Position numbers: made by a program. Shown piece after piece: positions 41,501 to 44,500 of a stretch of 64,000 bases of DNA. How positions within the stretch are numbered: the stretch's first letter is position 1; every line of letters begins with the position of its first letter. The DNA comes from Gammaproteobacteria bacterium (lineage in GTDB: Bacteria; Pseudomonadota; Gammaproteobacteria; Chromatiales; Chromatiaceae): contig JAABSM010000010.1 of the NCBI GenBank assembly GCA_011390365.1, positions 2,714 through 66,713 on the forward strand, written 5' to 3'.

Positions 41501-44500
41501 GACCGGCAACAGTACCCCGTTCTCTTTGGAAAGGGCGGAGAGCAGCGTAAACAGGGCGACCCCGCCAAGCTGCACCCAAGGCCCGCGCCTGTCCCCTGCC
41601 GCCTGGAGCTGCAGTCCCCCAAGATAGGTCAACAGTCCCGCCAACACGAAGAGGGCGGAGAGCCCGGCCATGCGTTGAATGGCGATCAGTGAGGTGGAGA
41701 CATGAATTGGCAGGATCAGCCACAAGGTCATCACCAGCAGGGCGCTCCAGTTGGCCCTGGCAGCAGTCATGCTCCCGAGTCTGGCGAGGAGCGAGGCCAC
41801 CCCAAATAGCAGCAGACCATTCAACAGGTGCAGCATGACGTTGGCGCCAAGAATCATGTTGCTCTGGTCAGGCCAATGCCCCTGATGGGGCAGGAAACTG
41901 GCCATGGCGAGGGGCCGTCCAAGGGGGCCAGAGCTATCCCCGAAGACAAAGGTCGTGACCGCCTCGCTGGTCTCTAGGTTGTTGAGTTGGTTTAGTCGCA
42001 GATGGTCATCAAAGTAGAGGGAGCCGGGTATTCCGGGCAGATAGGCAAACCCAACCGCAATCAATACGAGAAGCGAGAGGACCGCAGGAAGGCGGGAAGA
42101 TGTGAGGATTGGCGTAACAGAATTCATTGGGGGATCTGTCCAGGTGGATAAGGGATTGCAGGAGACGGTACCGAGGCCGTAGCGGATCTGTCAACCTTTC
42201 AGGAGTGGACCTGAACGATCGGTGGAAGGCCCGATTGCCCAAGCCACTCATAGGCTGGCAGAGGGCGGACCCAAATTTTCGTCGCTATGTGACGAAAAAT
42301 GTCAGTTAGGCTCTCCCCGAGGTCCATGAAATCCCCGGGGCCAACTGGTTTTTGCCCCAACCACCGGATGAGGGGCCACTAAGCCGCTTGGGCCCGGTCC
42401 CATTATGAGAAGACCGTCACCTTTGGTCTTCGATTTTGAGGCGGTGATCGATGGTTGGCACGCGAACTGCATATCTCTAGACACCTACCCCCGCAGGCAA
42501 TCGCCGGCACCCTAGGGGCAGGATGTGCAAACGATATCTTTAGGAGATTGTCATGAAGAAAGTTCAACAAGGTTTTACCCTCATCGAGCTCATGATCGTG
42601 GTTGCGATCATCGGTATTCTGGCGGCCATCGCCATTCCTGCTTACCAGGACTACATTTCCAAGTCTCAGGTCCAGCGTGTGGTTGGTGAGCTTTCCGCCC
42701 TCAAGACTTCCATTGAAGAGCAGTTGACCCGCGGCGAAAATTGGGCCGCTGAGGACTGTCTCACTGCGGGGATTGGTTATACCGGCTCTAATCTTGTGGC
42801 GGCCTGTGAGGCTGACTTCAGCGCTGGTGTCGGTGAGATGAGTGGCACGATGGGTACTAATGCAGCTGCCTCAATCTCCGAAACGGTAGTCAATATCAAC
42901 CGTTTGGCTTCCGGCGCCTGGACCTGCACCATCTCCGGCAGCGGCTCTGGCTGGAAAGATGCCTTCAGGCCGACCAACTGCGATCCCGCTTAATTGCTTA
43001 GTCGCTTGATGACGAAAAACAGGGGCTTTGGCCCCTGTTTTTTTTTGCCCCACCGCGTATCGTTCGCTTAAGACAACCAGGAAGTAACGCTAAGGATTGA
43101 GGGAGGATTGAGGGACTGGAAGAGGTCGGGAGCCTTCGGTTCGTAAACATTCGATTTTCATGTATGGCACTTTTTGTAATCTTTTTTTGTTGGTAATGCT
43201 TGTATGGTGAAACGTGCACATTCGGTGATTCCCAACCAAGATAATCGCCAGCAATCCAAAGCCCATCAACTGATCCACAAGGCGCAGGCAGCTTCCGCGG
43301 GGGGGGATTTGGAGGCGGCGGAGGAATATTGTGGGGAGGCCCTTGGTTTGGGCTATGATAAAGCGCATACCTATTACGCGCTTGGTGTCATCTATCGGAA
43401 GGCTGGTCACCTGGGGTTGGCATTGAATGCCTTTCTCAATTCGATTAACGAAAAGGAGGACAACGTCTACGCGCTAGTTGGCGCTGCCGCGATTTTTGTG
43501 GAGCAGGGGGGGACTATCCGCGCGCCAGGAAACTACTGGACCAATGTCTGGAGTATACCCAGACGTTTGCCGATGCCTATCAGGTGCTTGGGGAGTGCCT
43601 TATCAGGGAGTATAAATTCGAAGAGGGCATTTCGGCCAGTGAGCGAGCGCTGTCACTTGCGCCGTCCAATAGCCGGGTTCTCACTAGTCTCGCCAACGCC
43701 TATGCTTTTGCGGGCGATTTTGAGAAATCTTTGAGATATCGGGAGAGGGCGCTGCGCGCCAGTCCCAAGGACCCTGTGGCGATCAACAACCTGGCCAGTA
43801 GCTACATTGATGCAGGGCGCACGGAGGAGGCGGGTAAGTTGATCCGGAAGGCGATTCGGCTTGCCCCCGATGACCCAAAGGCATCAGCGGCTTATATCAA
43901 TTTCGGCCGCTTCAAGAAATGGAGCAGGGAGGATGAGGCGGATATCCGCCTTCTGGAGGAGAAACTGGAAGGATCCCTGCCGCTGGAGAATCGTGTCAAG
44001 ATTCACTTTGCTCTGGCCAAGATCTACGATGACTGCAAGGACTCCAATAAGGCATTTTATCATGCGCAATTGGCAAATCGCCTGAGCAACGTGGAGTTCC
44101 CGATTGAAGAGGCGAAGTCCTTGCACAAATCGATCCGCAAGACGGGGGACCGGCGTTTTTGCGGGGGCGGAGAAGACTACAAGAGTACGCGAACCAGGGC
44201 CCCCATATTCGTGATCGGTTTTCCCCGCAGCGGTTCGACCCTGCTTGAGCAGATACTGGATACCGCTGAGGAGGTCGTGAGCGTGGGAGAGAGCGGGGCT
44301 CTCACTGATGTCATACGTTCTCTGGACTTGCCCTGGGATGAGAAACGCTATGGCGCGAATCTGGTGGAAAGGGTCTCCGCCAGGGACCCTTCCGAGTTGA
44401 GGGATGGATATTATGAGCGGGTGGCGCGTTATGCGCCGGGCGCGGAAATAGCCGAAAACTCCCGCTATCTCGACAAGACGCTGGGAGACTACATGTACTT

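Follow-up and report, generated by a model that had tools for sequence, protein, structure and literature searches.

We describe here a frameshift polymorphism in a 64,000-nucleotide stretch of contig JAABSM010000010.1 from an uncultured gammaproteobacterium, referred to in full as the window. The affected gene, ST1, encodes a tetratricopeptide repeat (TPR)-containing sulfotransferase and lies beside a type IV pilin gene (pilin 1); its neighboring paralog is termed ST2. The window probably carries a recent loss-of-function allele of ST1 that was made by slippage at an accidental, indel-prone run of G's, contains two additional G's (GG), and segregates in a wild population. We regard the run as an accidental mutation-prone tract with a segregating null allele and not as a demonstrated contingency locus, and the frameshift polymorphism belongs to a known kind of phenomenon.

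Direct reading of the sequence together with a script located two G tracts in ST1 (runs of n G's are written Gn) and bore out a frame break at the downstream one that had been proposed from the sequence alone. The features concerned, with their strand, are as follows.

43204..43734, +: open reading frame (ORF) 1 of the broken ST1, 176 aa, made up of 103 native N-terminal residues (∼2.5 TPRs) and 73 further residues that are out of frame
43299..43306, +: G8 tract, gcG GGG GGG Gat (A-G-G-D), in frame, the same in all strain-level contigs covering it
43506..43512, +: G7 tract, the G5 run of intact alleles (caG GGG Gac, Q-G-D) enlarged by an inserted GG; the frameshift site
43512..45008, +: remaining ST1 frame, with TPRs and a complete Sulfotransfer_3 domain (PF13469, E 4.6e-41)

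ORF1 passes the G7 tract as ...AAIFVEQGG and is out of frame beyond it. The second frame begins with DYPRARKLLDQCLEYTQTFADAYQVLGECL... at 43512 and runs to the stop at 45008, the earliest possible start codon being a GTG at 43584 (474 aa). When the tract length was varied in silico, G5, G8, and G11 yielded ST1 ORFs of 600, 601, and 602 aa, respectively, and the remaining lengths in the range of G3 to G10 all yielded 136 to 177 aa; a length change of this repeat within the ORF would be predicted to switch ST1 expression. The simulation agreed with the sequence-only reading that G8 or G5 would fuse both ORFs into one of ∼600 aa, and the upstream G8 was in frame, as that reading had stated. It had also taken the repaired protein to be colinear with the intact paralog, and the alignment of repaired ST1 with ST2 indeed ran straight across the junction (35% identity over 578 aa, E 2e-108). 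Pfam domains supported the identification of the split gene as a TPR-sulfotransferase beside a pilin: PF13469 scored 141.9 bits (cutoff, 27), several TPR families were above the cutoff on repaired ST1, and hundreds of homologs showed the same architecture.

Tract lengths at 43506 were read from consensus contigs of metagenome assemblies, with L001 to L009 denoting contigs of relatives.

Window (NCBI contig, 70,302 bp): G7
L006 (SRR29699988): G7, with a 176-aa ORF1 identical to that of the window
L009 (SRR29699985): G7
L001 (SRR29699987): G5
L007 (SRR29699986): G5
L008 (SRR29699992): G5
L002 (Joint Genome Institute [JGI] contig, sister species, 89%): G5
L003 to L005 (65% ortholog): G4

Very close relatives were polymorphic in tract length, but with two states only: the strain-level contigs were 99.5 to 99.9% identical to the window and had either G5 or G7. 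Seven observations gave these two lengths only, which lie two bases apart, and neither G6 nor G8 was found at 43506. All three OFF observations were exactly G7. Contigs L001 (G5) and L006 (G7) differed over 1.68 kb (42916 to 44597) in the GG alone. In a multiple alignment of the strain-level contigs, the only indel inside ST1 fell exactly in the G run, which is nonrandom, and no second indel or stop was present in ST1 of any G7 contig. Consistently, the six members of the 90% protein cluster were equally divided between proteins of 600 aa and split versions (474, 474, and 410 aa). The upstream G8 was identical in all five contigs covering it (window, L001, L006, L007, and L008). The Logan contigs come from another assembly pipeline than the window, and at least two separate sequencing runs yielded contigs with G7. 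A comparison among samples, as the sequence-only reading had advised, thus separated runs of one project into G5 and G7. Neither of the alternatives that it had listed accommodates this result: a homopolymer sequencing error is at odds with G7 in the assemblies of two other runs and G5 in those of three, and an invariant G7, i.e., a fixed pseudogene, is at odds with G5 in L001, L007, and L008.

A second polymorphic G tract was found nearby.

48955..48961, +: intergenic G tract, G7 in the window and L006, G6 in L001, L007, and L008

It is situated 45 nt past the stop of a GT-C-like gene and ∼700 nt upstream of a second type IV pilin gene (pilin 2). The window and L006, the only two G7-allele contigs covering both tracts, share its long state (G7), 5.4 kb from the G7 of ST1. 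This sharing, together with the constant G7 of the OFF state, accords better with identity by descent than with fluctuation that is independent in each lineage.

The native state of the tract was deduced from intact orthologs. A search with the repaired ST1 protein found three, each of 600 aa: P0001 (99% identity), P0002 (89%), and P0003 (65%). Their junction residues are VEQGDYPRA, VEQGDYPRA, and VGKGDFQRA, respectively, with a single Gly in all, encoded by CAGGGGGAC (G5), CAGGGGGAT (G5), and AAAGGGGAT (G4). Since every intact allele found has G5 or G4, the window carries a +2 (GG) insertion. The headline of the sequence-only reading, that G8 is the restoring state, was not upheld; no intact allele found carries G8, which appears from these sequences to be an arithmetic restorer only. 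In a sequence alignment, the junction matched the "KQGDY" helix-turn of consensus TPR proteins, and the G8 version (QGGDY) would add a residue to this tight turn. The upstream G8 site likewise falls on a "GD" turn. In the orthologs this site has the same length but reads GGTGGGGG (GAG GTG GGG GAT) in L002 and GCTAAAGGCGAT (GCT AAA GGC GAT) in L003, and the upstream G8 therefore arose by base substitution and not by slippage. A long tract was retained in the orthologs at neither site: the downstream run is G5 at 89% and G4 at 65% identity, and the 65% ortholog has no run at the upstream site. Wider scans added little on tract length. Among GTDB representative genomes, repaired ST1 found only a relative with 30% identity; an exact-pattern scan of JGI metagenome contigs, allowing tracts of 3 to 12, gave no matches in a collection that also lacked the L002 contig; and a profile scan of JGI metagenome contigs gave 80 loci, all of ≤34% identity and uninformative on the tract.

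G runs as such are within chance expectation in this DNA. The window is 61% GC and 32% G, and it contains five G7 runs versus ∼10 expected from composition and two G8 runs versus ∼3.2 expected. Housekeeping genes hold such runs too, with an in-frame G7 in uvrD (at 4324) and G6 runs in msbA. GGG accounts for 34% of the Gly codons of ST1; because of this GGG-rich usage and the "QGD" of the TPR turn, the native run amounts merely to the codons caG GGG Gac. Neither the length of the ON allele (G5) nor the frequency of G7 and G8 runs points to a hypermutable tract beyond what composition provides.

The lesion appears to be young. The ratio of nonsynonymous to synonymous substitution rates (dN/dS) in comparison with the 89% ortholog was 0.19 for ST1 and 0.27 for ST2. 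The low ratio of ST1 shows past purifying selection; because of it, the lack of a second lesion in the G7 contigs, and the near-identical intact allele, ST1 must have been functional until recently. Polymorphisms within the population comprised 6 nonsynonymous and 5 synonymous sites in ST1, which are too few to interpret.

Several other explanations of the split gene were weighed. That a homopolymer was miscalled and the real gene is intact seems extremely improbable. The break does lie in a homopolymer, the classic site of miscalls, and the window stems from a metagenome-type contig; but G7 recurred, with an identical 176-aa ORF1 in L006 and again in L009, in another pipeline and two different runs, and three other runs of the same project gave G5. 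The difference is moreover +2 and not the usual ±1, and the longer G8 200 nt upstream was called alike everywhere. It is not credible that some runs alone should carry a systematic +2 miscall. We give hardly more weight to an old, fixed, decaying pseudogene, as might be suggested by the split ST1 of the window, by the intact paralog next door that could make ST1 dispensable, and by the 6:5 ratio of nonsynonymous to synonymous polymorphisms. Such a gene is hard to reconcile with intact alleles at ∼99.8% nucleotide identity in the same project, with G7 contigs free of further lesions, with the dN/dS of 0.19 versus the sister species, or with an allele that is not fixed, the assemblies being split 3 to 3. 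Equally improbable is recoding, in which a 601-aa protein would be made from G7 at some efficiency, either by ribosomes that shift by −1 on G_GGG_GGG or by slippage during transcription. Read in the zero frame, caG GGG GGG has the form and register of an X_XXY_YYZ heptamer, and a −1 shift would give ...EQGGDYPRA..., equal to the G8 product. However, all-G heptamers are not known to be among the efficient bacterial slippery sites, and the downstream 101 nt showed no notable fold (z = −0.54; 55 of 200 shuffles folded at least as well). The heptamer is missing from every intact allele and ortholog and therefore cannot be a conserved recoding signal; of the features of a programmed −1 site, the heptamer is present in form, with neither structure nor conservation.

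More serious, although still unlikely in our view, is a true simple-sequence-repeat contingency locus, in which poly-G slippage would reversibly toggle ST1 (G5 and G8 ON, G6 and G7 OFF) and generate heterogeneity of the pilus surface. A phase-variable ON/OFF switch was what the sequence-only reading had suggested, and one part of it stands: tract length at the poly-G truly varies among near-identical contigs of one project. In addition, ST1 adjoins a pilin gene within a surface-modification island, the tract is located in the 5′ third of the ORF with a second G8 tract 200 nt upstream, and the island's G tract at 48955 is also length polymorphic. In Neisseria meningitidis, mainly homopolymers of at least 8 units are variable, and G/C tracts of <7 are weak candidates (PMC5084427); by these Neisseria criteria, a G/C tract that reaches 7 and varies by >1 unit is not a "weak" candidate. 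The reversible switch itself fared less well. The ON allele, G5, is below the usual hypermutable G/C lengths, the lengths seen were limited to two that differ by two bases, the longer upstream G8 was invariant in five contigs, neither tract is kept as a long run in the orthologs (G5/G4 downstream; GGTGGGGG or no run upstream), and in a G8 ON state the canonical TPR turn would be lengthened by one residue. According to a recent review, phase variation demands high, reversible switching rates, and the 7C tract of siaD is set apart there as an accidental mutation-prone tract, expected in GC-rich genomes (PMC11868660); the G7 and G8 runs of the window are likewise not enriched over composition. 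The GG indel showed all four gametes with several flanking single-nucleotide polymorphisms (SNPs), which was considered as a sign of recurrent switching. This was rejected, as pairs of SNPs behave alike and consensus contigs of mixed strains are possibly mosaic, and the linkage argument thus carries no weight. More doubtful still is the wider idea that ST1 is a contingency gene of an environmental, nonpathogenic, sulfur-oxidizer-like gammaproteobacterium, with an enzyme resembling protein-tyrosine sulfotransferases (TPSTs) that would decorate type IV pilin or its glycan, and with G5/G7 as the footprint of a switch maintained, e.g., by phage or grazer pressure. If true, sulfated pilin or glycan would be a pilus modification so far undescribed. 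The present case is weak evidence that phase variation extends beyond host-adapted pathogens.

We therefore favor a recent +GG null allele, which could have arisen as follows. The native five-G run is formed by caG GGG Gac, the codons for Q-G-D in a "QGDY" helix-turn that is canonical for TPRs. Two extra G's would have been inserted in one lineage, most likely by replication slippage, either in one +2 step or in two +1 steps. The resulting G7 leaves a truncated product of 176 aa, and the frame downstream of it lacks a start codon before the GTG at 43584. G7 coexists naturally with the intact G5, samples of one project being dominated by either. The null allele may be tolerated since ST2 is intact, or loss of the pilus modification may sometimes be advantageous. 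Reversion would be possible, as a single +1 slip would turn G7 into a 601-aa "QGGDY" version and a single −2 event would give back the wild type; there is no indication of frequent reversion. Some observations weigh against this account. Slippage seldom produces a +2 change at a G5 run, and this one was seen without a G6 intermediate. The frameshift allele was present in about half of the assemblies, more than a simply deleterious mutation predicts. The G7 allele occurred on differing downstream SNP backgrounds (L009 versus L006 and the window), which could mean a recurrent origin. Finally, consensus sequences may conceal minor length variants within samples.

The frameshift in this metagenome contig is a real allele that segregates in a natural population and not an error, and the annotation of ST1 should read strain-specific pseudogene with an intact G5 counterpart. 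G5 and G7 constitute a natural wild-type and knockout pair for a pilin-linked TPR-sulfotransferase, and, should pili from these populations or from an isolate become accessible, comparison of G5 and G7 strains would directly test for sulfation of pilin or glycan.

The polymorphism resembles several known systems in part. The siaD 7C tract of N. meningitidis and homopolymer indels of Mycobacterium tuberculosis are described as accidental mutation-prone homopolymers (PMC11868660). As in these cases, ST1 has a short G/C run of composition-expected length in a surface-related gene, knockout indels at appreciable frequency, and no sign of an evolved, elevated switching rate. In contrast to them, its wild-type run is shorter (G5), the change is +2, and the host is an uncultured environmental gammaproteobacterium known from metagenome consensus contigs and not from isolates. 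Poly-G/C tracts of Neisseria exceed that of ST1 in length and gain or lose single units at high rates that have been measured, whereas the ON tract of ST1 is G5 and only G5 and G7 were seen. The parallel with Neisseria pilin modification drawn in the sequence-only reading holds with respect to gene role: like the phase-variable pgtA/pglA and pptA (PMC2193922, PMC3656113), ST1 is a gene for a pilin-associated enzyme turned off by an intragenic poly-G frameshift, with alleles differing between close relatives. It does not extend to homology, the Neisseria enzymes being glycosyl- and phospho-form transferases and ST1 a TPR-sulfotransferase.

A further likeness concerns gene arrangement. In the pilin groups of Pseudomonas aeruginosa, accessory genes (tfpO/pilO, tfpW, and others) lie directly downstream of pilA. 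ST1 and its neighbors similarly place putative modification or accessory genes right after a major pilin in a variable, lower-GC island. No sulfotransferase is known in the P. aeruginosa pilA islands, and for ST1 and ST2, unlike the P. aeruginosa genes, it is position that suggests pilin modification. For the catalytic domain of ST1, the best matches among solved structures were protein-tyrosine sulfotransferases 1 and 2 (E ∼1e-5), spanning the whole domain including the PRSG(S/T)TL loop that binds 3′-phosphoadenosine 5′-phosphosulfate (PAPS). ST1 shares with TPST1 and TPST2 this catalytic domain, with its PAPS-binding loop, and the Pfam family Sulfotransfer_3; it differs from them in its low identity, its N-terminal TPR array, and the lack, as judged by eye, of a signal peptide or membrane anchor, and its substrate could be a protein or a glycan.

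ST1 lies in a lower-GC island (∼42 to 50 kb) with the following other features.

42553..42993, +: type IV pilin 1, 146 aa (PF00114 Pilin, PF07963 N_methyl), immediately upstream of ST1
43020..43046, +: candidate intrinsic terminator downstream of pilin 1, read by eye as the hairpin CAGGGGC-TTTG-GCCCCTG and an adjoining T9
45087..45407, +: 106-aa ORF between ST1 and ST2, called in L001, L002, L003, L006, L007, L008, and L009
45486..47339, +: intact paralog ST2, 617 aa, TPR and Sulfotransfer_3
47423..48910, +: polytopic membrane protein, weakly matched by PMT_2 (PF13231, GT-C glycosyltransferase; E 2.2e-5, under the gathering cutoff)
49652..50083, +: type IV pilin 2, 143 aa

The island comprises, in order, genes for a GT2 glycosyltransferase, a 590-aa protein, a methyltransferase, an LPG_synthase_TM protein, a 640-aa protein, and pilin 1, followed by ST1, the 106-aa ORF (for which Pfam gave no match), ST2, the GT-C-like membrane protein, and pilin 2, and this gene order is kept in the sister species. 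Because a terminator-like hairpin follows pilin 1, ST1 probably has its own promoter; a consensus terminator scan did not list the hairpin and T9 at 43020 to 43046. Linkage of ST1 to pilin was present in three related lineages (window, L002, and L003), and no pilin was found within 3 kb at any of the 80 distant homolog loci; the linkage thus appears, from the loci compared, to be specific to a small ST1 clade. Its position suggests that ST1 modifies pilin or its glycan, and a literature search retrieved no paper linking sulfotransferases to pilin modification and nothing relevant on the SRA runs.

The GltX protein encoded in the window was 78% identical to those of Candidatus Endoriftia (Ridgeia symbiont) and of metagenome-assembled genomes labeled Chromatiaceae and Candidatus Vondammii, and 76 to 77% identical to those of Sedimenticola and Candidatus Thiodiazotropha. 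These identities place the host among uncultured gammaproteobacteria of the sulfur-oxidizer and symbiont group.

Additional variation was noted around the pilin genes. In the 3′ part of pilin 1 (42760 to 42915), the window and L008 differed by 19 substitutions in ∼155 bp, versus ∼0.2 to 0.3% divergence elsewhere; this segment resembles a hypervariable C-terminal pilin region, and several Logan contigs end exactly at 42916. An intergenic segment of ∼127 bp upstream of pilin 2 (49161 to 49287) was missing from L006 and L007, with both flanks matching, which may reflect an indel polymorphism or a difference between the assemblies. The synteny shared with the sister species stops right after pilin 2, where gltX follows in the window (from 50088 onward) and an msrA-like (PMSR) gene in L002 (from 14556 onward). 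No tRNA genes were detected in the entire window.

Other homopolymers and a repeat were observed outside the island. The minus strand has a C10 run (55089 to 55098) that is read in frame as CAT CCC CCC CCC CTG (H-P-P-P-L) in a probable 232-aa gene (54559 to 55257, −), just downstream of cpsB (55260 to 55988) and wzc (55995 to 58274) in an exopolysaccharide locus. On length alone, this C10 is a better candidate for phase variation than the G7 tract of ST1; exact-protein lookups for C10 variation among assemblies returned nothing on record. A G9 run (20523 to 20531) is intergenic between mltF (18911 to 20461) and an ORF on the minus strand (20643 to 21740). Lastly, a segment of ∼225 bp (14747 to 14970), which ends at a G8 run at 14968, matched L003 (2578 to 2800) at 85%. 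The matching stretch of L003 lies just downstream of the sulfotransferase gene of the 65% ortholog, and the segment may be a dispersed repeat common to both species.

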